64,000 bases of DNA from Parcubacteria group bacterium LiPW_30 (GCA_007375595.1 VMEP01000001.1:415184-479183), one strand, 5' to 3'. Counted from the first letter of the stretch, positions 4,543 through 30,035 are shown. The notes: generated by a model from the letters alone, not told the origin. A program made the numbers and translations.

Positions 4543-4627
4543 ATTTGTTGTTTTGCGCGATATCTAGCACCTGTATATAATGAGCAGATAAAAATTAAAA
4601 CATTATAAAAATTAATTAAAAAAATAT

Positions 4628-5164
4628 ATGAATCAAGAAGGAAAAAATGTTCCGAATGTAGTGTTCAAAACAAGGGTTCGTGACGAAGGTGTTGAAGGTC
4701 CAAATCCATATCGTTGGCAAGATGTCTCTTCAGACGATATTTTTAAAGGAAAGAAAGTTGTAGTTTTCGCTCTTCCTGGAGCATTTACCCCAACATGTTC
4801 TTCAACACACCTACCTGGTTATGAAGCAGCTTACGAGGAATTAAAAGCGCTTGGTGTTGATGAAGTTTATTGTCTTTCCGTTAATGATGCTTTTGTCATG
4901 TTTCAGTGGAGTAGACACCAGGGAGTAGAAAAGGTAAAGATGTTGCCTGATGGATCAGGGGAGTTTACTAGAGGAATGGGAATGCTTGTCAAAAAGGACA
5001 ACCTTGGTTTTGGTGAAAGATCTTGGCGTTATAGCATGTATGTTGAAGATGGCTTAATTAAGAAAATATTTTCTGAAGCAGGTTTTTCAAATAATTGCGA
5101 AACAGATCCATTCGAAGTTTCAGATGCGTTGACAATGGTTAATTATTTGAAAGAGAATAAGTAA
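4628..5164 (+). CDS. peroxiredoxin, Prx5-like (AhpC/TSA superfamily)
   Basis: VVFALPGAFTPTCS peroxidatic-Cys motif and overall similarity to Prx5/PrxD-type thiol peroxidases. Confidence 0.85.
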   Translation: MNQEGKNVPNVVFKTRVRDEGVEGPNPYRWQDVSSDDIFKGKKVVVFALPGAFTPTCSSTHLPGYEAAYEELKALGVDEVYCLSVNDAFVMFQWSRHQGVEKVKMLPDGSGEFTRGMGMLVKKDNLGFGERSWRYSMYVEDGLIKKIFSEAGFSNNCETDPFEVSDALTMVNYLKENK

Positions 5165-5174
5165 CAAACAAATT

Positions 5175-5207
5175 AAAAGACGCTCTAGAAAGAGCGTCTT
5201 TTAATTT
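5175..5207 (+). terminator. terminator of the peroxiredoxin gene; also the left copy of the tRNA-Leu-associated direct repeat
   Basis: Hairpin agacgctct-aga-agagcgtct followed by tttaatttt. Confidence 0.6.
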
Positions 5208-5229
5208 TCGGTGCCGGGAGGGAGAATCG
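5194..5229. repeat. 36-bp direct repeat (copy 1) identical to the 3' end and flank of the tRNA-Leu gene
   Basis: gcgtcttttaattttcggtgccgggagggagaatcg is identical to 5494-5529, exactly 300 bp away. A third partial copy, gtgccgggagggagaatcggtcac, lies at 5373-5396. Confidence 0.8.
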
Positions 5230-5493
5230 GTCACAACTCTTCTGCTTCGATAAATCTACGCGACGAAGGTCGTTACCACGCCTCACTGTCGCCTTGCGAC
5301 ATGTTCCGGCTTTCGATTCTCCCCGCGAGTGAAGCAGTTCACTCTCTCTCCCGTCCACTCACTTTGTTCGTTGTGCCGGGAGGGAGAATCGGTCACGCAT
5401 AATTTTCTGCTGAAAATTTGCGCGACCCCGCCTTGGCACGTCTGCCTCCGGCTTTCGATTCTCTCGCCAAAAATTAAAAAACACCCAAAGAGG

Positions 5494-5529
5494 GCGTCTT
5501 TTAATTTTCGGTGCCGGGAGGGAGAATCG
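5494..5529. repeat. 36-bp direct repeat (copy 2) overlapping the genuine 3' end of tRNA-Leu
   Basis: See copy 1. This copy contains the real acceptor/T-arm 3' half of the tRNA plus 18 nt of downstream flank. Confidence 0.8.
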
Positions 5530-5593
5530 AACTCCCATGGATTACTCCGCACGATTTTGAGTCGTGTGCGTCTACCAATTCCGCCATCCCGGC
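5512..5593 (-). tRNA. tRNA-Leu (CAA), type II
   Basis: Reverse complement is GCCGGGATGGCGGAATTGGTAGACGCACACGACTCAAAATCGTGCGGAGTAATCCATGGGAGTTCGATTCTCCCTCCCGGCA. Anticodon loop CTCAAAA, long variable arm. CCA is not fully encoded (CCG). Confidence 0.8.
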
Positions 5594-5742
5594 ATTTATC
5601 CTAAAAATAGGATTATCGATATTCTAGGGGACTAAAGCCCAAAAATCAATTTTTTGGATAAAATTTTTGTGATATAATAATCAACATAAAGAAAATTATA
5701 TTTTAGATATATTTTAATTTTCGCACCTTAATATTAAATTTT

Positions 5743-6744
5743 ATGTCCCAATTTCGTAATGACTCAGTTTTTTGGATAGAAGTTGAAAAAATCAAACCAA
5801 ATCCGTATCAACCACGACGGGAGTTTGATGAATTGAAACTAAAAGATCTCTCAGATTCTATTCGCCAATATGGAGTGCTTCAGCCGATTGTTATTACACG
5901 CCGTGAAATAGAGCGTGAAGACGGCGGTATTTCTGCAGAATACGAACTTGTTGCCGGCGAACGACGTTTGCGTGCGGCCAAAATGGCGGGGATTGCTCAA
6001 ATACCGGCTGTTATCCGCGCAGTTGAAGATGATGCTAAAACAAAACTTGAACTCGCTATTATTGAAAATCTTCAAAGAGAAGATTTAAATCCTGTTGATC
6101 GTGCTGTCGCCTTTGACCGTTTAAGGGAAGAATTTGGTTATAAGCACGCCGAGATTGCCCAAAAGGTTGGTAAGAGTCGTGAATATGTTTCAAACACAAT
6201 GCGACTCCTCTTACTTTCAGACGAAATGAGGCAAGGTTTGGCTCAGGGGAAAATTTCTGAAGGTCACACTCGTCCAATTTTAATGCTCGTTGATAGACCA
6301 GAAGAGCAGATGACACTTTATAAAGAAATTGTTTTTAAGCGCATTACTGTGCGCGAGGCAGAAAGTATTGCCCGTAAAATTGCTCACGACCGTGTTCGTA
6401 AAAAAGATATTATTTTTGATCCAGAAGCACTTGAGCTTGAAGGTAAAATTGCAGAAGCGCTCGGGACACGTGTTTCTCTTGAGAAAAGGGAGGTTGGGGG
6501 AAAGCTCGTGATTGATTTTTATTCAAACGACGACTTACGCGCAATCTTTCAATTGCTAAACGCAAACAAGGAAGACCGCCGAGAACTCCTAGAACAATTT
6601 ATTGAAGGGCGTGAACTTGAAAATAGTATAGTTGCTATAAGTGAAGCCGAAGCGGGGATTGAAGCGCCCCTCGACGATCGTTCAAAAGACGAAATACAAG
6701 AACAGGAAGAAGATTTATACTACGTGCGAAATTTCTCTCTTTAA
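5743..6744 (+). CDS. parB: chromosome partitioning protein ParB/Spo0J
   Basis: ParB N-terminal box (IVITRREIE..YELVAGERRLRAAKMAGI..IPAVIR) and an HTH (HAEIAQKVGKSREYVSNTMRLL). Confidence 0.9.
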   Translation: MSQFRNDSVFWIEVEKIKPNPYQPRREFDELKLKDLSDSIRQYGVLQPIVITRREIEREDGGISAEYELVAGERRLRAAKMAGIAQIPAVIRAVEDDAKTKLELAIIENLQREDLNPVDRAVAFDRLREEFGYKHAEIAQKVGKSREYVSNTMRLLLLSDEMRQGLAQGKISEGHTRPILMLVDRPEEQMTLYKEIVFKRITVREAESIARKIAHDRVRKKDIIFDPEALELEGKIAEALGTRVSLEKREVGGKLVIDFYSNDDLRAIFQLLNANKEDRRELLEQFIEGRELENSIVAISEAEAGIEAPLDDRSKDEIQEQEEDLYYVRNFSL

Positions 6745-8255
6745 CTTCCGCCCTTTAAAAACTTAGCGAATTGATTAGCTAACCCCTCTTGGGCGTGTAA
6801 TTTTATTTGTTTCCTAGCAAAAGCAGTTTTAGAAAATTCAAGCCACTTTGTTGATGGTTTGCTTCCTTCTTTGGTTATTATTTCCACAATGTCAGCATTC
6901 TTTAATTTGGTATTAAGCGCGACTAGTTTTCCATTAACTTTTGCTCCAAAGACGTGATTTCCAACATCAGAGTGAATTGCATACGCAAAATCAATTGGTG
7001 AGGATTCTTCTGGAAGCTCAATAACATCACCCTTTGGCGTGAAAACGAAAACGCGATTCTTAAAGAAATCTGTTTTTAAGTGTTCCAAAAATTCACCACT
7101 TTTAGAAACATTTTTTTGCCATTCTGTTAGTTCTTGAATCCACTCAAGTTTTTTACTCATGTGTTCCTCTTTTGATTTGTTTTTACCGACCTCTTTATAT
7201 CCCAAATGTGAGGCAATACCGAACTCTGCCTCTTCGTGCATTTCTTTTGTTCTTATTTGAATTTCCACCGTTCCCCCATCACCAGAAAAAACCGTTGTGT
7301 GAATACTTTGATACCCGTTTGGTTTTGGTAGGGCAATATAATCTTTTATTCTTCCAGGAAGGGGACGCCATTTTTTATGAATTACCCCAAGGGCACGATA
7401 ACAATCTTCAATTGTTGGCACGACAATACGTAAGGCAACAAGATCATATATCTTATCAATATCCATTTCGTGTCGTTTCAGTTTGAGATATAAGCTCCAA
7501 AGATGTTTTACGCGTGAATCAGTTTTAAAATTTTTTATTCCACTTATAGCCAACTCCTTTCTAAGAGAGCGTTTTATTTTTTCTGCTTCTAGCTCACTTG
7601 CCGTGGCGCGCTCCTTTAAAAGTTTTTTAACTTGTTCAAATTCTTTTGGGTACGCATATTCAAAAGAATAATCTTCGAGTTCTCCTTGAATTCTTCCGAT
7701 ACCAAGGCGATTGGCAATTGGGGCGTATATCTCAAGTGTTTCTAGTGCGATGCGTTTTCGTTTTGCCTCCGGTACGTGTTTTAAGGTACTTACGTTATGA
7801 AGACGGTCTGCGAGTTTAATAATAATAACTCGAGCATCTTGTCCCGTTGCAATAAAGAATTTACGAAGACTCTCAACGTGTCTTTCTACTCCGTGATACT
7901 TTAGTTTTCCGAGTTTGGTGACGCCCTTAACTAGAAAAGAAATTTCCGGACCAAACTCTTTTAATATTTCTTCGTCTGAAACATTTGAATCTTCAACCGT
8001 GTCATGAAGAAGTCCTGCGGCGATAGTTTTCGCATCCATATGAAGGAACGCAAGGTTTTTAGCAACTTCTACGACGTGAGATTCAAAATACGATTCTCCA
8101 GAAAAACGTTTTTGGTCGCCGTGTGATTTTTTTGCGAAAGAATAAGCCCTTTCAATAAGCGCCTCGTTTTCCTTGGTCCTTTTGGACATGTGATCGATAA
8201 TGTCTTTCGCAGAGCTCATAAAAACAATAGTAGAGCCTCGCGCTTGTTTTCGCAA
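6741..8255 (-). CDS. bifunctional (p)ppGpp synthetase/hydrolase RelA/SpoT family (short form without ACT)
   Basis: HD domain (HGDQKRFSGESYFESH..LLHDTVED). Synthetase domain (DLVALRIVVPTIEDCY..PGRIKDYIALPKPNGYQSIHTTV). TGS region (FVFTPKGDVIELPEESSPIDFAYAIHSDVG). Start may be at Met-13. Confidence 0.9.
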   Translation of the reverse strand: MRKQARGSTIVFMSSAKDIIDHMSKRTKENEALIERAYSFAKKSHGDQKRFSGESYFESHVVEVAKNLAFLHMDAKTIAAGLLHDTVEDSNVSDEEILKEFGPEISFLVKGVTKLGKLKYHGVERHVESLRKFFIATGQDARVIIIKLADRLHNVSTLKHVPEAKRKRIALETLEIYAPIANRLGIGRIQGELEDYSFEYAYPKEFEQVKKLLKERATASELEAEKIKRSLRKELAISGIKNFKTDSRVKHLWSLYLKLKRHEMDIDKIYDLVALRIVVPTIEDCYRALGVIHKKWRPLPGRIKDYIALPKPNGYQSIHTTVFSGDGGTVEIQIRTKEMHEEAEFGIASHLGYKEVGKNKSKEEHMSKKLEWIQELTEWQKNVSKSGEFLEHLKTDFFKNRVFVFTPKGDVIELPEESSPIDFAYAIHSDVGNHVFGAKVNGKLVALNTKLKNADIVEIITKEGSKPSTKWLEFSKTAFARKQIKLHAQEGLANQFAKFLKGGS

Positions 8256-16896: not shown

Positions 16897-17373
16897 TTGT
16901 TTATGAAAGAAAGGAATCTTTTTCTCGTTACTATAATCATAGTTGTTGGTGTTGTTTTGTTGTTTATATACAAAAAAGATTTAATTGAGAAAATTCAAGT
17001 TTTTAAAAAAGATACAACAGTTACGCAAGAGCCAGTAAGAACAGATTTTGGTTCTAATGTTCCCGCCGATTTTCCGGCAGACATTCCCATCGAAGAGGGG
17101 GTAAAAACCGAGCAGAGCTATAGCCTGAATTATGTCGGACAAAAACAACTGACTATTGTTTTTATTTCAACCAAGACAGTGAAAGAGAATTACGCGTTCT
17201 ACGCCGATTTTCTCGCGAAGCAGGGCTGGAACGTTTCCAATAAATTCGAAAGCCCGAAACTATCCTCTCTGTATGGCACGAAAGAGAGTAATGATATTAA
17301 CGTGACCATCAGCGAAAAGAAGTTAGATGCTTCAGTAAAATCACAAGTAAGTATTAGTTTCTTAAAAAAATGA
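16897..17373 (+). CDS. membrane-anchored hypothetical protein
   Basis: N-terminal TM helix LFLVTIIIVVGVVLLFI. Translationally coupled (ATGA overlap) to the following glycine-rich giant gene. Confidence 0.55.
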   Translation: MFMKERNLFLVTIIIVVGVVLLFIYKKDLIEKIQVFKKDTTVTQEPVRTDFGSNVPADFPADIPIEEGVKTEQSYSLNYVGQKQLTIVFISTKTVKENYAFYADFLAKQGWNVSNKFESPKLSSLYGTKESNDINVTISEKKLDASVKSQVSISFLKK

Positions 17374-19289
17374 TTAATATAATTCGTACAATTTTTGTTG
17401 GAATAATTCTATTTTTAATAAATCCAGGTGTTTCTTTTGGCGCATCAATTAAAACATACACTGATTCTTCTGGTTTAAACCCTCGTTCCTCCCCACCATA
17501 TGTTGGCGGCTATGTCGTAGAGACGTTTACTTCATCGGGGACTTTTACTCCACCTGCTGGAGTCACCTCCGTGGATTACCTTGTTGTTGCCGGTGGTGGA
17601 GGCGGAGGCTCTGTTAATGGTGGGGCTGGTGGGGCTGGTGGTTTTCGAACTGCTAGTAATTATGTTGTGGTACCAAATAACCCAGTGACCGTCGTTGTTG
17701 GGGCTGGTGGGGCGAAAGGTAATCCATACGGTGGGAATAATGGATATGATTCTATTTTTGATTCTATTATATCGATAGGTGGTGGCGGTGGCTCTGGTGG
17801 TGGAGGTGCTGTTGAGGCAAAGGTTGGTGGTTCTGGTGGTTCGGGTGGATATTGGGTTTCTGGCGCTGCTGGCACCTCGGGGCAAGGTTATGCGGGTGGC
17901 ACTGGTGCTGGTGGATATCCAATAACTGGTGCTGGTGGAGGTGGAGGTGCCGGGGAAGCAGGAGACTCCCCTTTGTATGATTACACAGCAACTGATGGGG
18001 GTAATGGGCTTTCTTCTTTTATATCCGGGGTTAATACTTATTATGCTGGCGGTGGTGGCGGATGGGGGTGGGAGCAAGAACTTAGTTTAGAAAGAGATGG
18101 ACTCGGGGGCTTGGGTGGTGGCGGTTCAGGTAGAGTTAGCGGAGATGCAGGCGATGGTAGCGTAAACACTGGCGGTGGTGGCGGTGGTTCAAGTGAAAGT
18201 GGTGGCAACGGCGGGTCCGGCATCGTCATATTGAGGTACCGTAGCCCAGGTACTGTAAACATTACCTCAAGTATTTCATCGTCTTGGGTGGTTACCGGCC
18301 CGGCGACGATTACCGGCTCGGGCACCTCGCAGTCCTCGCCATCACAGCCCGCAGGAACATACACCATCACCTGGGGCGAGGTGTCCGGTTACACCGCTCC
18401 TGCGACTCAGAGCCTCACACTCGCTTCTGCTGGCACAATCACGTTTAACGGTACTTATGTGGCATTAACACCACCAACTACCACTTTCTCTGCTTCGCCA
18501 GCAACTATTTCGTATAACACATCCTCAACACTTAATTGGAGTTCAACAGATGCAACATCTTGTACTGCCGGGGGTGATTGGTCGGGAACAAAAGATATAT
18601 CAGGTAGTGTTAGTACTGGAAATTTAACAACATCTAAAACATACACACTCTACTGTACGGGCCCTGGAGGAAATTCTGTTACACAATCAGCGGCGGTAAC
18701 AGTAGAATCAAACCCACCAACTACTTCAATCACTAGTCCAACAATCGACATCACAATCCCTGAAAACCAAGAGCAACAATTTACAGGAGAAGCAGTAGAC
18801 ACAGATGGGACGATAGTTGGATATCAATGGAGAATGGGAAATTGTACAACAGGTACCGTTCTTAGTTCTTTGATAAGTTTTGCCAGATCATTTACACCAG
18901 GAACATATGATGTTTATTTCAGGGCCCAAGATAACAACGGGTTTTGGTCATTAGATTGCCCGACACGCAGAATTGATGTTGTCGTAAGTAATCAAATACC
19001 TGGTGTTTGCGGGGCTTCTAATGGTGTGCCAACTCAAAAGAAACCAACGTCAAATCTTTGTAGTACAGTAGGCTTACCGGAACCCGTTGTCTCGCCGGAA
19101 AATATTAGTGTCTTACCAGAAAGCGGCAACCCTTCTTCATGGTCATGGACATGCTCTGGAGAAAACGGTGGCGCAGATGCTGCTTGTGGAACCGCGACTT
19201 CGTGTGGTGATAATAAATGCCAGGCATCTAAAGGAGAAAACCCCTCAACATGTAAGGCTGATTGCAAGATAAAGTTTTTTGAGTTTTAG
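17370..19289 (+). CDS. secreted glycine-rich repeat protein with Ig-like middle domains and a Cys-rich C-terminal module
   Basis: Signal peptide. Gly-rich block with VDYLVVAGGGGGGS..GGAGGAGG..GGNGGSGIVILRY (glycine-rich-protein type repeats). Then Thr/Ser-rich beta domains. C-terminus has 10 Cys (CGASNG..LCSTVG..WSWTCSGENGG..ACGTATSCGDNKC..CKADCK). Confidence 0.75.
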   Translation: MINIIRTIFVGIILFLINPGVSFGASIKTYTDSSGLNPRSSPPYVGGYVVETFTSSGTFTPPAGVTSVDYLVVAGGGGGGSVNGGAGGAGGFRTASNYVVVPNNPVTVVVGAGGAKGNPYGGNNGYDSIFDSIISIGGGGGSGGGGAVEAKVGGSGGSGGYWVSGAAGTSGQGYAGGTGAGGYPITGAGGGGGAGEAGDSPLYDYTATDGGNGLSSFISGVNTYYAGGGGGWGWEQELSLERDGLGGLGGGGSGRVSGDAGDGSVNTGGGGGGSSESGGNGGSGIVILRYRSPGTVNITSSISSSWVVTGPATITGSGTSQSSPSQPAGTYTITWGEVSGYTAPATQSLTLASAGTITFNGTYVALTPPTTTFSASPATISYNTSSTLNWSSTDATSCTAGGDWSGTKDISGSVSTGNLTTSKTYTLYCTGPGGNSVTQSAAVTVESNPPTTSITSPTIDITIPENQEQQFTGEAVDTDGTIVGYQWRMGNCTTGTVLSSLISFARSFTPGTYDVYFRAQDNNGFWSLDCPTRRIDVVVSNQIPGVCGASNGVPTQKKPTSNLCSTVGLPEPVVSPENISVLPESGNPSSWSWTCSGENGGADAACGTATSCGDNKCQASKGENPSTCKADCKIKFFEF

Positions 19290-19476
19290 TTCACAAAAGT
19301 ATTTATATTTCTAGTATTTTATTGCGTGGTTTTCGTTGTGTTGTTGATAGTAATGTTTTTTTGGGCGAACACCTTAAAAATAAAAAGGTGCATAAGTGGT
19401 GTTGTGATAAATTTTTGAAGTTATAGAATGAAGAGAGGAATTACCTATAACCTATAAAAAAGAGAGGAGCGACATT

Positions 19477-19905
19477 ATGCATACTGTGCGTAGGTCGGAA
19501 GAGGTGAAGTTCTTTGCCAGAGTCGAACGTCGCCGAGAAAGAATAATCGACTGTGTCGCCATTGTCACAGTCGTTAGGTCCCAGTACGGAATTCACACCG
19601 AGGTTGATGTCGTCTTATATCGCCTCAACCGGAGAGAAGTTCGTTTTGGAGGCAAAGAGACGTTCGAGTTGGTACGCTTTTTGCCACAGGACAAAGAGTT
19701 AGCTTTTAATTTCTTCCCACATGGACCACCGTTTTTGAACAGCGGTCCGGCGTGGAAGGAAACCACTGGCTGGCTTGCCCCTGTAATTGATTCGTACAGG
19801 ACAATTTATGACCCTGGTTTGGTGATAGTAGAAGAGTATCCTCAAAAAATACTACCCACACCTTTTAGGCCGAGTGCATGTCCAGATCTTCGCGTTTTAC
19901 GTTGA
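19477..19905 (+). CDS. hypothetical protein (GC-rich islet)
   Basis: ORF within the 19.47-20.94 kb segment of ~55-58% GC. No motif. Confidence 0.4.
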   Translation: MHTVRRSEEVKFFARVERRRERIIDCVAIVTVVRSQYGIHTEVDVVLYRLNRREVRFGGKETFELVRFLPQDKELAFNFFPHGPPFLNSGPAWKETTGWLAPVIDSYRTIYDPGLVIVEEYPQKILPTPFRPSACPDLRVLR

Positions 19906-20030
19906 AGACCCCAATTTTGTTTGCCGAGTTAATCGGTTAGCAGGGTTGGGGCTTTTTGTTTACAACTTTTGTATGTTGTGTTAGTATTTTTGCGGGAATG
20001 TTCCCATAATGAAAAAGAAGGAAGCTATTG

Positions 20031-20534
20031 ATGAAAAATCGTACAGTAGCAACGAACTCACTTTCCGTGACGCCAGCGGTGATGTTCGACCTCGAAAAGA
20101 GGATTGTGGCGTACATGAAGGGGGCCGAATGGCGGAAACTCATCCACCCGAATATCGGAGAAGATTTCTTTGTTCCGATGTGGAGGAAGGGGAAGGACGT
20201 CCATGGCGGTTTCGGCAAAAACGGGTTCATCGAAATCGAGAAGAATCCCGTTTTCGGGAAAAAGGACATTGTCCGCGTCGTCGCACTCAAGCAGGCGGTC
20301 GCGAACAGCATGGACCCGTCGATCTCCACCTTGGGCGGGAAGAAAGATATCGTTCAGGTCATCAAGGACTGGTCGCTTATCTCGATTCCCGATTCGGCCA
20401 AGATCAAGGTGATCGAGCACCGCGCTGAATGTGTCAAAGACAGCGCGAAGCGGGCGAAGTTGCCGTTGTCGGACCGCTCCGTTGCGTACAGTTCGCACGG
20501 TGGCACCTCCACCTCGGCGGGGATTACGGCTTAG
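20031..20534 (+). CDS. hypothetical protein (GC-rich islet)
   Basis: aagaaggaag RBS 8 nt upstream of ATG. This is one of several overlapping long ORFs in all frames caused by the high GC. This frame has the most protein-like composition and the RBS. Confidence 0.4.
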   Translation: MKNRTVATNSLSVTPAVMFDLEKRIVAYMKGAEWRKLIHPNIGEDFFVPMWRKGKDVHGGFGKNGFIEIEKNPVFGKKDIVRVVALKQAVANSMDPSISTLGGKKDIVQVIKDWSLISIPDSAKIKVIEHRAECVKDSAKRAKLPLSDRSVAYSSHGGTSTSAGITA

Positions 20535-20678
20535 CTTTCGAGCTTTAGCCGATCATTGGTCCGTCTCATCTTCTAGGTGAGGCGGGCCATTTCATTGCTT
20601 GCGCATATAATTGTTTTTGGTTAGTATATGCGCTTGCCGAAGTTCAACAGTAGTACAACCAGAAGAGGAGAAGCACAG

Positions 20679-20867
20679 ATGCATCAACAAGGTTCGGGTT
20701 CATCGCGCAGCTTCAATGCCCGTCGCGCGAACTATTTCGCGCGTCAGGGGACGCAAGCACAGCCGTTGTCGGGTGGAGCAGGGGTCGCCGCAAATGATCC
20801 CAAAGCCACTTCCGGCGAAGAAGAAATCGTCGTCGATTCCAAGGAGTCGTCGGCCAAAAAGCAATAA
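20679..20867 (+). CDS. small hypothetical protein (62 aa; GC-rich islet)
   Basis: gaggag RBS precedes the ATG. Low-complexity S/G/A-rich product. Followed by hairpin ccggccgtaggccgg. Confidence 0.3.
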   Translation: MHQQGSGSSRSFNARRANYFARQGTQAQPLSGGAGVAANDPKATSGEEEIVVDSKESSAKKQ

Positions 20868-20971
20868 CCGGCCGTAGGCCGGCAACAGGTCCGCAAATCG
20901 TCCTTCGACGAAGAGCGGGCCTTTTTCATTTGTCGTGGCGACCTGATATAATAATTTTTAACCAATAGATA

Positions 20972-22042: not shown

Positions 22043-22064
22043 TTTAGTTTCGCGGGAAATACAT

Positions 22065-22135
22065 TGCCGGTTCGTCTAATGGTAGGACACCGCCCTTTGA
22101 AGGCGGGTATTGGGGTTCGAGTCCCTGACCGGCAG
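22065..22135 (+). tRNA. tRNA-Gln (TTG)
   Basis: TGCCGGTTCGTCTAATGGTAGGACACCGCCCTTTGAAGGCGGGTATTGGGGTTCGAGTCCCTGACCGGCAG. U1-A72 pair is typical of bacterial tRNA-Gln. Anticodon loop CTTTGAA, discriminator G. Followed by a T-run. Confidence 0.8.
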
Positions 22136-22202
22136 TTTTTGAGCGTAGTTCGAGAAGTGTTGTGTTTATATTAAACTCTAATCTGATATAATTAAGAAAA
22201 TT

Positions 22203-23027
22203 ATGTTAGTTACCAATAAAACAAAAATTCTTTCCCCTGTTAAACTAGCACCATATTTTCAAGAGGATAATTTTGTTCTATACAATAGCGACTCAATTAT
22301 TTTACTGAATCAATTACCAGAAAGTTCAGTAGATATGATATTTGCGGATCCTCCATACAATCTTTCGAATGACGGTTTTAGCGTACATGCTGGGCGAATG
22401 GTAAGTGTTAATAAAGGCGATTGGGATAAAAGTAAAGGATTCCAAGACGATTATGCCTTCCACTATCGTTGGATGGAAGCTTGTAGGCGAGTTCTTAAGC
22501 CAAACGGCACACTTTGGGTAAGCGGTACTTATCACTCAATTTACCAATGTGGACATGCCCTTCAATCACTCAGTTATCATATTTTGAATGATATAAGTTG
22601 GTTTAAACCAAACGCTTCACCGAATTTGAGCTGTAGATTTTTTACGGCAAGCCACGAGACACTTATTTGGGCGAGGAAAGAAAAAAAGGCAAAACATAAT
22701 TTTAACTATGATTTAATGAAAAACGGGGAATGGCCTGAGGATAAATTAAAGAAACCAGGTCTTCAAATGAGATCCGTTTGGTCTATGGGGACTCCTCGCC
22801 CCGAAGAGAAAAAATATGGTAAGCACCCAACACAAAAACCTCTAGATTTGCTCAAAAGAATAATTTTAGCAAGCACAAACAAAGGAGATGTTGTTTTAGA
22901 TCCGTTTACAGGTAGTTCTACTACCGGGATTGCGGCGGTGATGTACGAGAGAAAATTTATTGGAGTAGATCTTGAAAAAAAGTACCTTGATTTATCTGTT
23001 AAAAGATTTAATGATTTAAAAAAATGA
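22203..23027 (+). CDS. DNA methyltransferase, beta class (DPPY motif; N6-adenine or N4-cytosine)
   Basis: Motif IV IFADPPYNL precedes motif I VVLDPFTGSSTTG (the beta-class permutation). HPTQKP is also present. Confidence 0.85.
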   Translation: MLVTNKTKILSPVKLAPYFQEDNFVLYNSDSIILLNQLPESSVDMIFADPPYNLSNDGFSVHAGRMVSVNKGDWDKSKGFQDDYAFHYRWMEACRRVLKPNGTLWVSGTYHSIYQCGHALQSLSYHILNDISWFKPNASPNLSCRFFTASHETLIWARKEKKAKHNFNYDLMKNGEWPEDKLKKPGLQMRSVWSMGTPRPEEKKYGKHPTQKPLDLLKRIILASTNKGDVVLDPFTGSSTTGIAAVMYERKFIGVDLEKKYLDLSVKRFNDLKK

Positions 23028-23548
23028 TTAACAAAGGAAAAGGGGGAGGTAATACAATAACAGGACTTAATTTTGAAAAGGAAAAAGATATTCTTTCTCT
23101 TCTTAAAACTAAGAAAGGATATAGTGTTAAAGGAACAGCTATCTTTTATAACGGGAAGGAAGTTGCGAGGAACTATAAGAAAAATGCTCTATATAAATTT
23201 CTAGAATCTGAGAAGATAGATTACAAGAAAATTCTTTCTAAAAAACTTCTCCCCGATGAAGCTTTATATGTAATTGTTAATAACACCCTATTTATTATAG
23301 AGCTTAAGTTTCAGAAAGTAGCTGGGTCAGTCGATGAAAAATTACAGACATGTGATTTCAAAAGAAAACAGTATGCAAAATTGATGGCACCATTGAATAT
23401 AGAAGTTGAATATATCTATGTTTTAAGCGATTGGTTTAAAAAACCAGAATATAAAGATGTGCGAGATTATATAATTTCCGTAGGATGTCAGTATTATTTT
23501 GATTATCTTCCTCTACAAAAACTTGGGTTGCCTGTTCCACAAGATTAA
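23024..23548 (+). CDS. putative Type II restriction endonuclease (PD-ExK)
   Basis: Start overlaps the MTase stop (ATGA). PD..(E)xK signature LPDEALYVIVNNTLFIIELKFQK. 174 aa, otherwise novel. Confidence 0.5.
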   Translation: MINKGKGGGNTITGLNFEKEKDILSLLKTKKGYSVKGTAIFYNGKEVARNYKKNALYKFLESEKIDYKKILSKKLLPDEALYVIVNNTLFIIELKFQKVAGSVDEKLQTCDFKRKQYAKLMAPLNIEVEYIYVLSDWFKKPEYKDVRDYIISVGCQYYFDYLPLQKLGLPVPQD

Positions 23549-23574: not shown

Positions 23575-23615
23575 CAGTCTGTTTGAGATGGGTTCAGACT
23601 CTGAAGAAAATCGAA
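23575..23615 (+). promoter_or_regulatory. conserved upstream box (copy E): cagtctgtttgagatgggttcagactctgaagaaaatcgaa
   Basis: Homologous to 24852-24888 (tcagtttgagataagttcggactccgaagaacgtat). Both lie 5-15 nt before a start codon. It shares the YTCNGARGAAcgtcg core with the boxes at 24115 and 25813. Confidence 0.4.
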
Positions 23616-23619: not shown

Positions 23620-24105
23620 ATGGCGCAAATAATCAAAAAAGTATTTCATTGGCTTGGAACATTCCTTTGGAAGGATAAAACTTTAGCAATTATGGGTATT
23701 GTAATTGGGGTACTCGGCATTTATTTAGCTATAGATGCAAATAAAAGAACGGAAAAAGCTGAGGTTTTGCAAAAAATATCAGAGAAAAGCTATTTCGAGA
23801 CGACCTATAAGAAGATTTTCTTCAGTATTCCAATAGGAAATGGAATAGAAGATTTTAAAAAATTACCTAAAGAAACAGTAAATTCAATTCTGAATGACGC
23901 ACTCAGCGACATAGAATCGCAAATGAATAATAAATATCTTATTTCTAATACCGACTGCTTTAATAGTTGGAAGAGTTTTCAAGAATTTTTATATTTAGCC
24001 ATCAGATCTCCGGAAACTTTTGATTCTATGGGACCAGAACATAGCATCGCAAAGAACTATTACGCAAAATTGGATCCGCTATTGAATTATTGCCATAGTC
24101 TATGA
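23620..24105 (+). CDS. hypothetical membrane-anchored protein
   Basis: One TM helix (LAIMGIVIGVLGIYLAI). No motif. Confidence 0.5.
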   Translation: MAQIIKKVFHWLGTFLWKDKTLAIMGIVIGVLGIYLAIDANKRTEKAEVLQKISEKSYFETTYKKIFFSIPIGNGIEDFKKLPKETVNSILNDALSDIESQMNNKYLISNTDCFNSWKSFQEFLYLAIRSPETFDSMGPEHSIAKNYYAKLDPLLNYCHSL

Positions 24106-24153
24106 TTTTACCTATTCTGAGGAACGTCGGAGGGGCGGAATAAAAGTAATCAA

Positions 24154-24198
24154 AAAAGCCTTGTGGAGTTTGGTGGTATAATTTACGAGACCGAGGAG
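24154..24198 (+). promoter_or_regulatory. conserved promoter-like module P (copy A) with extended -10 TGGTATAAT
   Basis: aaaagccttgtggagtttggtggTATAATttacgagaccgaggag, preceded at fixed 26-nt spacing by box ttctgaggaacgtcgga (24115-24131). Confidence 0.5.
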
Positions 24199-24275: not shown

Positions 24276-24821
24276 TTGTCTATTATGGCAATCAAAAAAA
24301 CATCAGAGATTGGTAGTAAAGTAATCCGCTCTCGATCAAAAGAAGTTGAAAAAATAACTTCTTTGAGAGTTAAGAAAATAATAGTTGATCTCGTGGATAC
24401 TATGAGACATGTGAATTTGGTTGGTATGGCGGCACCCCAAATTGGAATAGGAAGTAGAATTTTTGTTACTGAAATTAGGAAAACAATAACACGAAAAAAT
24501 ATTTCTAAACCTGACCCACTTAAGGTTTTTATCAACCCCGAAATAACTAAGACATCAAAGAAACTTGTTGATGGATATGAGGGTTGCGGAAGCGTCGCCT
24601 CGGGGGGATTATTTGGAATCGTGAGAAGACCAGAAACTGTTTCCGTTCGAGCTTTTGATGAAACAGGTGAAGAATTTGAGTTAGAGACTTCTGGGTTGTT
24701 AGCAAGAATTATTCAACATGAGATTGACCATCTTGATGGAATTTGTTTTATTGATAAGGTTACAGACACTAAAAAATTGTTAGGTCGTCAAGAATATATC
24801 AAAATGGGAAGAAAAAAGTAG
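24276..24821 (+). CDS. def: peptide deformylase
   Basis: All three PDF motifs: GMAAPQIG, EGCGS, HEIDHLDG. Confidence 0.9.
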   Translation: MSIMAIKKTSEIGSKVIRSRSKEVEKITSLRVKKIIVDLVDTMRHVNLVGMAAPQIGIGSRIFVTEIRKTITRKNISKPDPLKVFINPEITKTSKKLVDGYEGCGSVASGGLFGIVRRPETVSVRAFDETGEEFELETSGLLARIIQHEIDHLDGICFIDKVTDTKKLLGRQEYIKMGRKK

Positions 24822-24851: not shown

Positions 24852-24888
24852 TCAGTTTGAGATAAGTTCGGACTCCGAAGAACGTATA
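24852..24888 (+). promoter_or_regulatory. conserved upstream box (copy F)
   Basis: See copy E. Follows the def terminator ggccggacttttttt. Confidence 0.4.
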
Positions 24889-24892: not shown

Positions 24893-25795
24893 ATGGAACT
24901 AAATCTTGGTTACAGAAACAAAATACTTATTTTAGGCGCGGGTGCGTCTAAAGACTATGGGCTACCAATCTGGAAAGAGTTGGATTCTTTGATAAAGGAG
25001 AGACTGAAAGATGGTGGAGAAAATCAATATTCACGCGCAAAGGATGTTTTGGCTTGGCTAGATAAGGTGGGAGAAAAAAACGAATATAAAACTATTGATG
25101 AATGCATTGAAAAGGAATCAGTAACAGGAATCTATCATTCAGATGGAGATAGTGTGGAAAACGATCTATTCTCGTCAGTCAAAGATATCTTCAACGAAGT
25201 TTATAAAGAAAATAACGAAGGTTGGATAACAAGGTTGAGTAATAAAATTTTACATAACTCTGAAAACCGATTGGAAGAGAGAGTGGCTTTCATAAATTAT
25301 AATTACGATAATGTTTTAGAGAAAAACCTCTTAAGATTTGGTCATCTGCCAGGGAAACATTTGCGTCTCAATAATAAACCTAGACTAGACCAGTTATCGT
25401 CGGTGCAGGTACCTGTTTTGTATGCTCATGGGAATCTTTATAAGAAATCTGAGGTACCCTTAGGGTCCCATACGGATAGATATTACAAAACCATGAAGAG
25501 TGGTTTCGTTGGGTATATAGATGTTGTTTCGTGTTATGAAAGCCACAACCATACAGTTAATCACGAGTTAGATGCCGACGAACTTGAAATGTATATTTTA
25601 GGATTGGGCGGGGGTCTTAAATTCAATCTTAGTAAACTTAATATTTCCAAGAAAGTGTCGCAAATTTCTGTGACAATTAGTAATGCTCATGACGATGAAG
25701 AAATTATAAAATTTTTAAGTACAAAATTTAAAGTTCCAGTAGAGAAAATTTTTATATATAGATCTTGTGCTGAGTTAATTGATACATGCTTCTAG
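24893..25795 (+). CDS. SIR2-like (SIR2_2 family) protein, stand-alone; putative NAD+-depleting defense effector
   Basis: N-terminus KILILGAGASKDYGLPIWKELDSLI matches the SIR2_2 signature (lFlGAGvS...GlPsW..L) used by ThsA/DSR-type antiphage proteins. 300 aa, no other domain recognised. Confidence 0.65.
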   Translation: MELNLGYRNKILILGAGASKDYGLPIWKELDSLIKERLKDGGENQYSRAKDVLAWLDKVGEKNEYKTIDECIEKESVTGIYHSDGDSVENDLFSSVKDIFNEVYKENNEGWITRLSNKILHNSENRLEERVAFINYNYDNVLEKNLLRFGHLPGKHLRLNNKPRLDQLSSVQVPVLYAHGNLYKKSEVPLGSHTDRYYKTMKSGFVGYIDVVSCYESHNHTVNHELDADELEMYILGLGGGLKFNLSKLNISKKVSQISVTISNAHDDEEIIKFLSTKFKVPVEKIFIYRSCAELIDTCF

Positions 25796-25851
25796 TAATA
25801 AATCGACTCTCATTCAGAGGAACGTCGAAATGGTACGATTAGAGATGTCAG

Positions 25852-25897
25852 AAAAGCCTTGTGGGGCTTGATGGGCAAATATACGAGACCGAAGAGG
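25852..25897 (+). promoter_or_regulatory. conserved promoter-like module P (copy B)
   Basis: aaaagccttgtggggcttgatgggcaaatatacgagaccgaagagg, preceded at 26-nt spacing by box ttcagaggaacgtcgaa (25813-25829). Confidence 0.45.
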
Positions 25898-26005
25898 CCA
25901 GTTTTTGAGCTGTTTTCTAGGGGTTATTCGTGCGAGGAATGATAAAGTAGTACTATAAAGCGACAAAGTTGTGTGTTTCGTTTGATAAACTTTTGGAATA
26001 AATTT

Positions 26006-26287
26006 ATGAACAATAAAGAAGCTAAAGCACGAATCAGAATAAACAGTCTACTCCAACAGTCTGGCTGGAGGTTTTTTGATGACGAAAACAGCAAGGCAAA
26101 CATTGCTCTAAATAAACTTTCAAAAAAATCAGTTGATGAATTAGGAAACGATTTTGAAAAAACAAAGAACAATTTTACCGATTTTCTTCTTCTTGATGAA
26201 AAAGGTTTCCCCTATGTTGTGTTTGCTGCAAAATCAAGCGCCGAACTGTTCGAGTTAAAAATAAAATCAAAAATCGATGAATTATGA
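26006..26287 (+). CDS. small HsdR_N-like (type I restriction R-subunit N-terminal nuclease-like) domain protein, catalytic Glu apparently replaced
   Basis: EAKARIRINSLLQQSGW and DFLLLDEKGFPYVVFAAK align to the EcoKI HsdR N-terminal motifs ESRFLIDAQLRKAGW and DYVLFVGLKPIAVVEAK. The ExK glutamate aligns to Ala. Start taken at the ATG at 26006. Confidence 0.5.
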   Translation: MNNKEAKARIRINSLLQQSGWRFFDDENSKANIALNKLSKKSVDELGNDFEKTKNNFTDFLLLDEKGFPYVVFAAKSSAELFELKIKSKIDEL

Positions 26288-26300
26288 GGAGAATAATTAT

Positions 26301-26483
26301 ATGAGCAGTAACATTATCAAACAACATTTAGCAGAGATGGTAAAAGACAAGAAACTGGATGCCGAGTTCATCCAGCTTTTGTCTGGTTCGAACGACAACA
26401 ACGAGGAAGGCAGAGATACTGCTATAAAGATTCTGTTTGCGATAAAAAAACGCTATGTTGAAAGTAAAAAAGATAACTCTTAG
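26301..26483 (+). CDS. small hypothetical protein (60 aa) inside the putative defense operon
   Basis: GAGGAG RBS 9 nt upstream of ATG at 26301. Overlaps the next gene by 29 nt. Helical, charged. Confidence 0.35.
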   Translation: MSSNIIKQHLAEMVKDKKLDAEFIQLLSGSNDNNEEGRDTAIKILFAIKKRYVESKKDNS

Positions 26484-28902
26484 TGGCTTCCGAGGGATTC
26501 TCAAACCTCAAGACCTAATCCTTACAGAAAAAGGAGACTCAAATCCGCACTCACTTGTTTTGTACGGACTCAATAGTTCTGGTAAAACTTCTTTCGTTGA
26601 CGGCATTGAGTGGTTTTTATCCGAAGAGAATAAGGTTGAATGGCTCACGCGTGAAGATGCCGAAGAGAAAGCCTACCCCCATTTAGCAGCCGACTCCAAA
26701 AAGGTTGAGAGCTTTGTAGAGTTGCAGTTCAATGACACAGACAAAAAGTTAGATTCTCTTCGCAAGACATACAGTCACAAAAAGATAACGCAACCCACAC
26801 TATCGTCCGAGAGTGATTTTGAAAACGTTTATAAGGTGTTCGTGATAAAGCCTTATCTTCGTTATCTGGAAGTTATAGATTTCGTTTATAACCACACGGG
26901 GCTAAAGAAGTATCAAAGGCTCGCGAATTGGATGGGATTTGAAAGTGAGCAGGCATTTCAAGAAAAGCTCGCCCTAAAGATACTCCCAGAGCTGAAAAGA
27001 AGAAAAGAAGAGTTATCAAATACCGTCGAAACTCTCGGCAGTCATCTATCGCGACTGACAGGAAGCAGCGACATATCGGAAATAGAGATTTTGAGAGTAA
27101 GTAATGGGATTTTAGCCTTGCATAAAATCGCCGAAAAGAAGAACGTTAGTGAGCTTATGGATTACATTCCAGAGTTTGCAAAGCTCCGTGCTATCTCCTC
27201 TGTAGGAATCACGGTAGATAAACTTACCCAAGCAGAAACCAATATTAGCTTGTTTGCTATAAATAAGACACTTCTTGAATCTCTTGCGGATGCAAAGAAA
27301 AAAGTTGATGACTTTAGTAAAGAACTAAAGAAAATTGAACAGATTAATGTCATCGGACTCTACGATCAGGCTTTAGAGGTTTTGAATAAGCAAACAGAGT
27401 CGGCAACTGTTTGTCCTGTATGCGGCACCAGTTGGAAGAAAGATGAGCTGGTAAAACATATCCAAGACGAACTGGGGTTACTCACAAAGGTAAAAGAAGA
27501 CAAAGAAGCGCTTGAGCTAACAGTTAGTCGACTCAAATCGGCAGTAAGAACTGAAATAACCGCAACAGAGAGACTGGTTTCAAAATACGATGACGTTCAA
27601 AAAATAATTCCAGTTCTTACATACGAAAAGGTAAAATCGTATAAAGATGCTCTGTCCATAATGGAGAGCGGTTGGCTAACTAAACCTCTGGGCAGTAATA
27701 CTGAAATAACACTCACACAGGAACTTCGCGACCAGAGTGAAGAAGAGCAGCAACAAATACTAAAGACCATCACTGCTGAAAAGACGAAGATTCAGCCATC
27801 AGAGAAAGACATCAAGATTGCAGAGGATATTGAAAAACTGACTCAAATACGGACGAAGCTCATAGAAGTCAAAGATGCCGAAGCTGAACGGGAGTTTACG
27901 GAAAAGGAGATTGAAAAGTTCATTGCAGTAAGCAATAAGCTCGTCACTTTGATTCAAGAGAACATCAAGTCTCGATTCAATGAGATTTCCGAGCGCATTG
28001 GCAAATACTTTTCAATTTTGAGGAACGATAAAGATATAAAAAACATCGAGATTGTCTTGAACGAAGAAAAAGGACGTGCGGCGGGGCGTTCAGCAGAGAT
28101 ACAGCTCCACTACTACGATGTGACCGTAAAGCCCGCCTATAAAGTTTTGAGTGAGTCATTGTTAAACAGTTTGGGGTTGGCGGTGTATTTCACCTGCATC
28201 AAGCAGTTCAATCAGGACTGCAAGTTTATAGTGCTTGACGATATAATGAACAGCCTCGACATAGATAAAAGAGACACACTACTTGATTTGATTGAGCAGG
28301 AGTTCGGTGATTATCAGGTTATTCTTTTCACACACGATTATTATTGGTTTCAAAAGATATTGAGACGATTTCCAAAATGGATACGAAAGAAAATAAAAAG
28401 TTGGGGCTACGAAACAGGCGCCCTTATTGATGTTGCTGCAACAACTCAAGGAGAGATTGAGGAATGTCTGGCGGATGCAACCAAGATTGAGGATGCTGGC
28501 TGGAAACTCGGAAGATATGTTGAGAGCACGCTAAACGAGTTTTGCGAGAATCTGTGGGCAAAAGTTCGCTACCGCTATACAAAGAACGACCCGCCCGCAA
28601 TGGAAGAGCTATTTGATGCACTGTGCGGGCGCCTAAAAGACAAGCTGAACGAACACCCAGTAGTAAAACAAATACAGGAGGCTAAAAAATATGAACCTAT
28701 ACTGCGCAATTTTGTGTCTCACGCAAGAACAAATAGTGGCTCTACGGTTTCGCCTCAAGAGATAAAACGAGCAGCGAAAGAATGGTTCAAACTTGAGAGT
28801 CAACTTTGGTGTAACGACTGTAGTCAATTCGTTGAATATCATAAAACCAAATCGTCAATCGAATGTCACTGCGGGAAGTTGAAACTGGAGAAAGTAAAAT
28901 GA
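26455..28902 (+). CDS. Rad50/SbcC/RloC-like ABC ATPase with coiled-coil zinc hook and C-terminal extra domain
   Basis: N-terminal ITLSGFRGI..LYGLNSSGKTSFVDGIEW (Walker A). Roughly 500 aa of coiled coil containing a CxxC hook (TVCPVCGTSW, ~res 320). Walker B/D-loop FIVLDDIMNSLD. H-loop ILFTHD. Then a ~190-aa C-terminal domain ending in a C-x2-C..C-x-C ribbon. Confidence 0.8.
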   Translation: MLKVKKITLSGFRGILKPQDLILTEKGDSNPHSLVLYGLNSSGKTSFVDGIEWFLSEENKVEWLTREDAEEKAYPHLAADSKKVESFVELQFNDTDKKLDSLRKTYSHKKITQPTLSSESDFENVYKVFVIKPYLRYLEVIDFVYNHTGLKKYQRLANWMGFESEQAFQEKLALKILPELKRRKEELSNTVETLGSHLSRLTGSSDISEIEILRVSNGILALHKIAEKKNVSELMDYIPEFAKLRAISSVGITVDKLTQAETNISLFAINKTLLESLADAKKKVDDFSKELKKIEQINVIGLYDQALEVLNKQTESATVCPVCGTSWKKDELVKHIQDELGLLTKVKEDKEALELTVSRLKSAVRTEITATERLVSKYDDVQKIIPVLTYEKVKSYKDALSIMESGWLTKPLGSNTEITLTQELRDQSEEEQQQILKTITAEKTKIQPSEKDIKIAEDIEKLTQIRTKLIEVKDAEAEREFTEKEIEKFIAVSNKLVTLIQENIKSRFNEISERIGKYFSILRNDKDIKNIEIVLNEEKGRAAGRSAEIQLHYYDVTVKPAYKVLSESLLNSLGLAVYFTCIKQFNQDCKFIVLDDIMNSLDIDKRDTLLDLIEQEFGDYQVILFTHDYYWFQKILRRFPKWIRKKIKSWGYETGALIDVAATTQGEIEECLADATKIEDAGWKLGRYVESTLNEFCENLWAKVRYRYTKNDPPAMEELFDALCGRLKDKLNEHPVVKQIQEAKKYEPILRNFVSHARTNSGSTVSPQEIKRAAKEWFKLESQLWCNDCSQFVEYHKTKSSIECHCGKLKLEKVK

Positions 28903-29963: not shown

Positions 29964-30009
29964 AAAAACCTTGTGGGGCTTGATGGTATAATTTATGAGA
30001 CCGAGGGGG
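29964..30009 (+). promoter_or_regulatory. conserved promoter-like module P (copy C)
   Basis: aaaaaccttgtggggcttgatggTATAATttatgagaccgaggggg. A fourth partial copy, aaaaagccttgtgtgg, lies at 30558-30573. Confidence 0.5.
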
Positions 30010-30035
30010 TCAGTAAATTATCGTAGAATAATATA

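Follow-up and report, generated by a model that had tools for sequence, protein, structure and literature searches.

Gene organization of the locus

The window analysed in this paper is a stretch of 64,000 nt from Parcubacteria group bacterium LiPW_30. Within it, a tRNA-Gln gene is followed by an N6/N4 methylase, a PD-(D/E)XK protein, a 161-aa gene, def and a SIR2-like gene, in that order, and the distance from tRNA-Gln to the SIR2-like gene is 2.76 kb. An 815-aa ATPase starts 0.66 kb downstream of the SIR2-like gene (26455) on the same strand. The tRNA was the only Rfam match between 19 and 32 kb of the window. The features to which the text refers are as follows.

22064..22136, + strand: tRNA-Gln(ttg), anchor of the locus (ARAGORN and Rfam)
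24855..24882, + strand: module B, GTTTGAGATAAGTTCGGACTCCGAAGAA, candidate promoter or operator, ending 10 nt before the ATG of the SIR2-like gene
24893..25795, + strand: SIR2-like gene, encoding a 300-aa single-domain SIR2-fold (SIRim-type) protein (ORF, homologues, AlphaFold, PDB fold matches)
24935..24949, + strand: GAGAS loop (residues 15-19), dinucleotide-binding loop following strand beta1 (conservation; KomC 'GAGVS' aligned)
25091..25117, + strand: TIDECIEKE motif, family-specific (T67, D69, C71, E75; member alignment)
25301..25309, + strand: N137-Y138-D139, the SIR2 'NYD' catalytic/NAD-ribose motif (112/112 members)
25427..25432, + strand: H179-G180, with the putative catalytic His (alignment to KomC H146)
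25601..25615, + strand: GLGGG (residues 237-241), second Gly-rich loop behind a late beta-strand (member alignment)
25812..25896, + strand: module A, copy 2, right after the stop of the SIR2-like gene, start of the next (RloC-like) unit

In the ORF listing of the window, 24893..25795 is a single ATG-initiated frame of 300 aa on the + strand, and the start positions of homologues agree with the ATG at 24893. By translation, KILILGAGASKDYGLPIWKEL corresponds to residues 10-30 (nt 24920-24982). Both the frame and this N-terminal motif are as the first-pass annotation had described them. Seven columns of the motif (G15, A16, G17, S19, Y22, P25 and W27) are identical in all 112 full-length members of the family alignment, and the motif is therefore far above chance. 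The same annotation described a protein of 300 aa with no fused sensor. This was borne out by the AlphaFold2 model built from the family alignment, in which a single compact domain can be seen (pLDDT 93.8, pTM 0.91).

A family of CPR bacteria

In a word-indexed search, 98 of 5.8 billion proteins matched the SIR2-like protein, 97 of them at E<=1e-39, and nearly all of these homologues are 285-320 aa long with a query coverage of 96-100%. When 1.84 billion cluster representatives were searched exhaustively with a profile, 38 clusters scored at E<=1e-30; the number rose to 71 at E<=1e-10 and to 885 at E<=1e-3. The family comprises at least 112 full-length, single-domain members of about 300 aa (range 280-360 aa), the ORF is intact in all homologues, and all sources checked give every member the annotation "hypothetical protein". 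The gene is real, and its product belongs to an unannotated family of CPR bacteria. Members come nearly throughout from Patescibacteria, the named ones from Magasanik-, Gracili-, Kaiser- and Paceibacteria.

The family is sparsely distributed: 185,579 species genomes (one genome per species) contain about 20 core-family loci. No relatives were found among IMG/VR viral contigs, PLSDB plasmids or GenBank phages, and a structure search of BFVD with the model gave no significant match. Between genomes, the SIR2-like proteins are 73-79% identical, whereas the housekeeping proteins shared by those genomes are 25-59% identical and synteny is absent, suggesting horizontal spread of the gene.

Conserved residues

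Thirty-five columns are invariant in the family, and they include the whole predicted NAD pocket. The NYD motif aligns with N107-Y-D109 of KomC, the NADase of the Kongming system, and with positions 2-4 of the Pfam SIR2_2 model. Position 179 is His in 107 of the 112 members and Asn or Tyr in the other five; the column of KomC H146, to which it aligns, holds Asn or Ala in the inactive PDB entries 9xvc (H146N) and 8zsi. The earlier SIR2 assignment had been made to depend on the retention of the catalytic Asn, Asp and His, and all three are kept, with N137 and D139 conserved at 100% and H179 at 96%. The TIDECIEKE motif is nearly as constant, D69 being present in 112/112 members and invariant also in wider stand-alone relatives, and C71 and E75 in 111/112. 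In the second Gly-rich loop and beyond, G237, G241, N245 and T261 are found in 112/112 members and G239 in 111/112, and the LGxG...N...T pattern persists in the outer relatives of the family. The further family-specific conserved residues comprise W27, W111, D69, C71, C214, C292, G237-x-G239-x-G241, N245 and T261.

The five replacements of the His could be taken as signs of a catalytically silent NAD(P)/ADP-ribose binder, serving as sensor or regulator, or of a decaying island remnant. However, the intact ORFs and the 35 invariant columns, with the whole NAD pocket among them, argue for a selected enzymatic site, and we consider a silent binder or remnant very unlikely.

Placement in the SIR2 superfamily

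Two Pfam models match the protein, AbiH with 21.1 bits (E=3.8e-4, residues 68-208) and SIR2_2 (PF13289) with 17.7 bits (E=3.9e-3, residues 132-190), and neither reaches its cut-off (30.9 and 24.5 bits, respectively). The SIR2_2 model aligns from the NYD motif onward only, covering NYD and HG. Of 32 family members, 6 match SIR2_2 at E<=0.1, none of them above the cut-off, and 1 matches AbiH. Since no core-family member attains the SIR2_2 cut-off, the protein is not a textbook PF13289 member. The first-pass annotation had called the N-terminus a near-textbook SIR2_2 signature. It was right about the superfamily and the intact Asn/Asp/His, and too confident about SIR2_2 itself, the score being 17.7 against 24.5 bits and AbiH being matched slightly better. 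It had also proposed a search against PF13289, with the lack of any match past the N-terminal 25 residues to count against it; the search yielded the weak match at residues 132-190, below the cut-off, and remote homology emerged through intermediates.

These intermediates are outer relatives, stand-alone proteins of about 300-350 aa, which match SIR2_2 far more often than AbiH (41 against 6 of 85; best SIR2_2 E=1e-7). A distant relative in locus L031 exceeds the SIR2_2 cut-off with 27.2 bits. The core family aligns with the outer relatives over the full length (hhalign, 100% probability, E=2e-39), with the GAGAS, TID, W, NYD, HG, LGxG, N and T motifs in register. The PADLOC 'SIR2' model matches the protein at E=6e-6 over residues 9-143. 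Profile matches were sought in NCBIfam and PHROGs and none was found. There was likewise no match to the sirtuin model PF02146 at E<=1, and no CxxC pairs were found in the sequence, so that it holds no CxxC...CxxC zinc module. With a broader profile of the family, the KomC NADase is matched at E=2.8e-7, and in that alignment N137, D139 and H179 correspond to KomC N107, D109 and H146.

The predicted structure leads to the same group of proteins. The best 20 Foldseek matches in the PDB are all defence SIR2s (SPARSA, SIR2-HerA, ThsA, DSR2 and KomC), with the SIR2-APAZ protein of SPARSA at E=2.4e-4 and human SIRT2/3 ranked below them; the TM-scores are modest (0.35-0.47). SIRim proteins have been separated from sirtuins by a Rossmann sheet of seven or more strands and by the lack of the sirtuin Zn site (bioRxiv 10.1101/2024.09.18.613514). 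In the model of the SIR2-like protein, 10 DSSP strands can be counted over the whole chain, sheet membership aside; together with the missing zinc module, this would be in keeping with the immune branch. The SIRim hallmarks, namely the equivalents of ThsA N112 and H152 and the Gly-rich NAD loop, are present as N137 in 112/112, H179 in 107/112 and GAGxS in 112/112 members. By transitive profile links, fold and KomC alignment, the protein sits in the SIR2 superfamily, and within it in the defence-type branch (SIRim: SIR2_2, AbiH, KomC and similar).

Comparison with known SIR2 systems

By sequence, the closest solved protein is KomC of the Kongming system KomABC (PDB 8zsf, 9xvc; 264 aa), the protein matched at E=2.8e-7. 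KomC is likewise small and SIR2-only, with GAGxS, W, NYD and HG in register. KomC is described as working with KomA and KomB and as being switched on by a nucleotide signal (bioRxiv 10.1101/2024.12.20.629578). Unlike KomC, the present family has no conserved partner, and no neighbour of any kind recurs in the 38 loci. It also differs in the additional conserved D69, C71, C214, C292 and GLGGG, and the Foldseek TM-score between the two is about 0.38.

Among stand-alone proteins, AbiH of Lactococcus (PF14253, about 346 aa) is similar in being a chromosomal, single-gene, SIR2-fold protein of comparable size, and it is the best Pfam match, yet a sub-threshold one. AbiH was described as sirtuin-like, and an NAD-depleting mechanism was proposed for it (PMC13064643). 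AbiH occurs in Firmicutes on ICEs, whereas the present family occurs in CPR bacteria beside tRNA-Gln. A second stand-alone protein, sole-Sir2, of about 440 aa, is supervised by CRISPR. Its activity in vitro yields ADPR from NAD+, and one of its homologues confers protection from T2 and T4 (bioRxiv 10.1101/2024.12.27.630466), from which it follows that one-gene SIR2 defences exist. As compared by description, sole-Sir2 has an extra N-terminal region, a proposed sensor, and a DSR2-like SIR2 domain, which the present protein lacks.

The best structural matches are SIR2-HerA (Nezha), SPARSA, ThsA and DSR2 (Foldseek E=2e-4 to 1e-2, probability up to 1.0), and these share the catalytic Asn/His logic. 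All four need a sensor or partner (HerA; pAgo/APAZ; SLOG plus ThsB; a large C-terminal domain), whereas the SIR2-like protein has none. The SLOG/Macro fusion of Thoeris is absent from the single 300-aa domain, and no adjacent TIR protein recurs. A protein of about 1000 aa with a large C-terminal sensor, as in DSR1/DSR2, was not encountered among members of 280-360 aa. Housekeeping sirtuins (CobB, SIRT) share the Rossmann-type NAD-binding superfold, but the present protein differs from them by the missing PF02146 match, the missing zinc module and more than six beta-strands in the model. Precedents exist for the fold, for the probable chemistry and for the idea of a single-gene system. Because the family misses the SIR2_2 and AbiH cut-offs, has motifs of its own, is restricted to CPR bacteria and is linked to tRNA-Gln, it is best filed as a new family of the known stand-alone, defence-type SIR2 kind (compare AbiH and sole-Sir2).

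Sequence modules around the gene

Two repeated modules flank the SIR2-like gene. Module A, a promoter-like repeat (consensus AAGCCTTGTGGrGyTTGrTGG, followed by TATAAT in two copies), occurs three times in the 64 kb (24156, 25854 and 29966) against an expectation of 0.01; TGGTATAAT is present in copies 1 and 3 and degenerate in copy 2. The copies stand before def, directly behind the SIR2-like gene and before the gene at 30036. These positions bracket two units, one made of def and the SIR2-like gene and the other of the RloC-like block.

Module B has the consensus GTTTGAGATnnGTTCrGACTCyGAAGAA and holds a 13-bp palindrome, TTCGGAcTCCGAA. A second copy (23581-23608; 0 matches expected by chance) precedes the gene at 23620, and the two copies end 10-11 nt ahead of the ATG of that gene and of the SIR2-like gene. 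By alignment, diverged versions of module B precede the family gene in loci L003 and L005, which otherwise show no synteny with the window, and G:C to A:T exchanges in them preserve the palindrome. The exact module A and B patterns were absent from all collected homologous loci. In the 71-nt gap upstream of the SIR2-like gene, no canonical sigma-70 promoter was found. Module B as a structured RNA leader was considered and left unsupported by z-scores of -0.9 to +0.8. We treat module B as a putative promoter or operator element moving together with the SIR2-like gene. The conserved promoter module that the first-pass annotation attributed to the gene was therefore only partly right: the TATAAT-bearing module A is not directly upstream, and the position is occupied by the different, 28-nt module B, which is conserved in L003/L005.

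The downstream ATPase

The downstream ATPase belongs to a family of its own of about 815 aa. Conserved in at least 95% of 107 homologues are the Walker A motif, a C320-P-x-C323 zinc hook, D595-D596 and H627, together with a HEPN motif (R751-N752-x3-H756) and a C-terminal Cys cluster. Zinc hook, HEPN and Cys cluster together make up the layout known from the anticodon nuclease RloC (PMC2610378, PMC3458546, PMC3710099). In all 4 homologue loci examined, an ORF of about 60 aa precedes the ATPase gene and overlaps its start by 15-29 nt, and the same arrangement exists in the window (26277-26483 against 26455). In three of these 4 loci an R-M system (type I, MmeI-like or type III) comes before the ATPase homologue, and a SIR2-like neighbour was sought in the 4 and found in none. 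In the window, the 104-aa ORF at 25973-26287 gave weak REase/EcoRI matches and resembles what would be left of the N-terminal nuclease domain of an HsdR protein, which fits an RloC-like module that has lost its R-M companion there. Module A and this remnant stand between the SIR2-like gene and the ATPase unit.

The ATPase also matches PADLOC LmuB (E=9e-25), and a Lamassu subtype with a SIR2 effector exists, being listed in bioRxiv 10.1101/2024.09.18.613514. Considering that the two genes are close and on the same strand, the SIR2-like protein could be thought to be an LmuA-like, Lamassu-type effector of this SMC-like ATPase, or otherwise its partner. However, an ATPase homologue accompanies none of the 38 homologous loci, and the ATPase homologues, each with its own ORF of about 60 aa, lack a SIR2-like neighbour in 4/4 loci. 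Additionally, the ATPase carries a HEPN effector of its own in the RloC architecture, module A and the HsdR-like remnant separate the two units, and the 300-aa protein bears no extra LmuA-type domain. The ATPase is a separate, self-contained RloC-like effector despite the LmuB match. Since it adjoins the SIR2-like gene in the window only (1/38 loci), Lamassu membership is effectively refuted, and any partnership with the ATPase is extremely improbable.

Neighbours of the family gene

For the question of partners, 38 distinct core-family loci were assembled from species-representative genomes and metagenomes, genes were called in them and the neighbours were clustered. No recurrent partner protein family was found over these loci. 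Like the ATPase, def adjoins the SIR2-like gene in the window only (1/38 loci), and a partnership with def was rejected. Neither gene recurs beside homologues, and the cooperation with one of them that the first-pass annotation had suggested is not supported. This corrects the first reading of the locus, in that the ATPase is a separate, R-M-associated RloC-like module and def is a bystander. The SIR2-like protein probably acts without def or the ATPase and has no conserved partner. A NUDIX gene was considered as a partner and is adjacent only in L016 and L044 and three genes off in L051, too few cases to call.

Pfam and PADLOC censuses covered 154 neighbours within three genes of the family gene. 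Defence and mobile functions among them include type II/III R-M, GmrSD-HNH, Abi_2, TIR_2 (1 of the 154), RhuM/Fic, an SLFN-type helicase with MazG, and integrases. Housekeeping neighbours comprise CTP synthase, RuvB, H+-PPase, ArgJ and PBPs. HerA, Piwi and APAZ families are absent from the window and, among the matches listed, from the censuses; deaminase and Ham1-type families were not among the matches listed, which give the 25 commonest families per census.

In several loci (L001/L002, L007, L046 and L049/50/52) a same-strand DNA methylase, from one of two unrelated families, lies directly upstream of the family gene. In L050, the gene is placed inside a type III R-M operon in the order Mod-T-99aa-Res, where T is the SIR2-like gene and the junctions are 4-5 nt. 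The window itself has a type II R-M pair upstream of the gene and the R-M-associated RloC-like module downstream. Such arrangements would be expected of a PrrC-like guard, an NADase silenced by an R-M or methylase partner and released when a phage anti-restriction factor disables that partner. Against this, the methylase-adjacent loci (L001, L007, L046 and L050) all belong to one subclade with 67-74% identity and may thus represent one or a few events, about 80% of the loci have no adjacent R-M gene, and clustering with R-M is generic for defence islands. A guard of this type appears improbable for the family.

Linkage to tRNA genes

One feature does recur beside the family gene. A tRNA-Gln gene detected by ARAGORN lies directly upstream of the family gene on the same strand, at gaps of 3-244 nt, in eight loci (L003, L004, L006, L008, L012, L015, L016 and L061). 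Its position is taken by tRNA-Asn in L011 and L014 and by tRNA-Ser in L053. A same-strand tRNA within 250 nt upstream is found for 11 of 34 family genes (8 with tRNA-Gln) against 4 of 516 other genes of the same loci (Fisher p=1e-11; tRNA-Gln alone p=4e-9), and the linkage extends over the entire family tree, the deepest branches included. In L017, L047 and the window, tRNA-Gln is 1.3-2.8 kb upstream with other genes in between.

Integration hotspots are classically found at tRNA 3' ends. In L003, the 3' end of the tRNA is repeated perfectly over 18 nt between the tRNA and the family gene, and a degenerate tRNA 3' remnant precedes module B in L005. These att-like scars point to insertion of integrating elements into the space that separates the tRNA from the family gene. 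In the window, a downstream repeat of the tRNA-Gln 3' end was sought and none was found, so that no far boundary of an island is defined by this means. The GC content of the region is 0.305-0.37, compared to about 0.40, and the low-GC region begins behind tRNA-Gln; the designation of the region as an island is reasonable on these grounds. The rarity of the gene, and its high identity between genomes without synteny, lead to its reading as an accessory gene at a tRNA-Gln hotspot, which may be exchanged with the conserved tRNA as an anchor.

The same linkage could also point to a CPR-specific, NAD-dependent cellular enzyme, a deacylase, an ADP-ribosyltransferase or an RNA-directed enzyme, tied to and co-transcribed with tRNA-Gln. 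It would account for the same-strand tRNA-Gln directly upstream across the family tree, and for gaps down to 3-48 nt behind it, which leave little space for a separate promoter. The very high sequence conservation and uniform length, the many housekeeping neighbours and the absence of the gene from the phages and plasmids searched are also in its favour. However, a gene with about 20 core-family loci in 185,579 species genomes, to which Patescibacteria contribute thousands of species, is a poor fit to a core tRNA-linked function. Moreover, tRNA-Asn and tRNA-Ser can occupy the same position, tRNA 3' ends attract integration and an att-like repeat is present in L003, and R-M operons enclose the gene in one clade. 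Among known folds, immune SIR2s are closer than sirtuins, the sirtuin zinc module is missing, and the contrast of 73-79% protein identity with 25-59% for housekeeping proteins suggests horizontal spread. We judge such a cellular enzyme unlikely, although it deserves some weight.

A more specific variant takes tRNA-Gln and the SIR2-like gene as an ancient co-transcribed CPR unit in which the function of the enzyme is linked to the tRNA or to the tRNA locus, and little probability is given to it. If it were true, the activity might report tRNA-Gln transcription, cleavage or island integration, via tRNA processing, or the enzyme might use NAD+ to modify RNA or a component of translation. In either version, the protein would not be a generic NAD-depleting Abi effector.

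Proposed function

The reading favoured by the evidence for the SIR2-like gene is that of a minimal single-gene NADase defence, one of the possibilities named at first annotation. The protein would be a minimal SIRim-type enzyme that binds and hydrolyses NAD+ and acts alone as an effector of the abortive-infection type, a proposal whose chances we regard as about even. The analysis establishes the gene and its family, a SIR2-like fold, the conservation of the catalytic positions, the lack of a conserved partner and the significance of the tRNA linkage, while NAD+ binding, NADase chemistry, a role in defence and a trigger are inferred. The GAGAS loop and the NYD/HG pocket would bind NAD+, which would most likely be hydrolysed to ADP-ribose and nicotinamide, without the participation of def or the downstream ATPase. 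The gene itself would be an accessory one in a tRNA-Gln-linked hotspot, a place in which R-M and further defence cassettes gather, and its likeliest role would be that of a one-gene abortive-infection or defence effector, which on being triggered would deplete NAD+. By analogy with ThsA, KomC and SIRanc, whose activity depends on assembly into higher-order structures, the protein is probably inactive until an infection cue drives its oligomerisation; alternatively, control might be transcriptional, through module B.

CPR bacteria are tiny, mostly uncultured episymbionts, and to our knowledge few defences beyond R-M have been recognised in them. The SIR2-like protein, a chain of about 300 aa that lacks both a sensor domain and a partner, would be one of the smallest SIR2-type effectors known. 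Should it prove to be an NADase, the question arises of how a bare SIR2 domain stays off and is then turned on, and its compact build would suit it as a scaffold in structural studies. The linkage to tRNA-Gln marks a hotspot of defence and integration in CPR genomes, which could be mined for further systems.

R-M genes and att-like scars around the SIR2-like gene

tRNA-Gln and, directly after it, a type II-like R-M pair occupy window 22064-23548; the two genes of the pair overlap:

22203-23027, N6/N4 methylase
23024-23548, 174-aa PD-(D/E)XK protein

The arrangement of tRNA-Gln and R-M pair looks like the classic insertion of an island at a tRNA 3' end. In L003, one of the loci fetched from other genomes and metagenomes, the 3' end of tRNA-Gln (GAGTCCCTGACCCGCAGC) is found as a perfect 18-nt direct repeat (4690-4707 and 4847-4864), flanking about 140 nt of the interval from the tRNA to the SIR2-like gene. 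This direct repeat is an att-like scar. A degenerate tRNA 3' remnant, without an intact tRNA, lies 5' of module B, a repeat element, in L005.

In some other loci, R-M genes adjoin the SIR2-like gene. In L049, L050, and L052, a type III R-M operon carries, inserted between mod and res, the SIR2-like gene together with a 99-aa ORF, the junctions measuring 4-5 nt; the L050 operon (2191-7881) encodes a mod of 587 aa and a res of 901 aa. In the related loci L001, L007, and L046, an EcoRI-type methylase is located directly 5' of the SIR2-like gene. All of the methylase-linked loci (L001, L007, L046, and L050) belong to a single subclade. Additionally, NUDIX hydrolase genes were found in 3 loci (L016 11010-11474, L044 4155-4547, and L051 3198-3731), directly downstream of the SIR2-like gene in 2 and three genes downstream in the other. 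A link to ADP-ribose handling could exist, the 3 cases being too few for a verdict.

Repeat modules and the deformylase gene

Gene blocks of the island are bounded by copies of a second repeat element, module A (50-85 nt), of which exactly 3 exist in the 64 kb:

23581-23608, second copy of module B, 11 nt 5' of the gene for the 161-aa protein
23620-24105, 161-aa predicted membrane protein
24114-24198, module A, copy 1
24276-24821, def (deformylase), adjoining the SIR2-like gene
25812-25896, module A, copy 2
29964-30012, module A, copy 3

An extended -10 (TGGTATAAT) is present in copies 1 and 3, and the module A copies may represent either promoters that were duplicated or junctions between cassettes. 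Searches of Pfam, PADLOC, NCBIfam, and PHROGs gave no family match for the 161-aa protein, and none of the other fetched loci encodes a homologue of it. The def gene may be an ordinary chromosomal def instead of island cargo; in L090, the locus of an RloC-like ATPase homologue, a def-fmt pair (3647-5010) lies upstream of the RloC-like module at a distance similar to that of def in the window.

The RloC-like module

Downstream of the SIR2-like gene, a two-gene RloC-like module of small ORF and ATPase (26277-28902) follows a 104-aa ORF:

25973-26287, 104-aa ORF, HsdR-N-terminal/PD-(D/E)XK-like sequence, including DFLLLDEKGFPYVVFAAKS
26277-26483, 68-aa ORF, overlapping the ATPase gene
26455-28902, 815-aa RloC-like SMC/Rad50-type ATPase
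27412-27423, zinc hook CPVC of the ATPase
28705-28722, C-terminal HEPN motif RNFVSH of the ATPase

Zinc hook, HEPN motif, and Cys cluster of the ATPase are each at least 95% conserved among 107 homologues. The PADLOC label of this ATPase, LmuB (the Lamassu SMC-like ATPase), looks like a misassignment. In other CPR genomes, the pair of small ORF and ATPase is located directly 3' of type I, MmeI-like, or type III R-M genes. The 104-aa ORF, with Ala in place of the usual Glu of the PD-(D/E)XK-like sequence, is probably the leftover of an R-M gene normally found 5' of the module.

Other features of the window

In a 639-aa secreted-looking protein (17370-19289), long Gly-rich (GGxGG) tracts occur together with beta-like repeats rich in Ser/Thr, and the C-terminus is rich in Cys. 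Near its gene, the stretch 19300-20970, without an Rfam match, shows raised GC (up to 0.52) and contains only short ORFs, which overlap in several frames.
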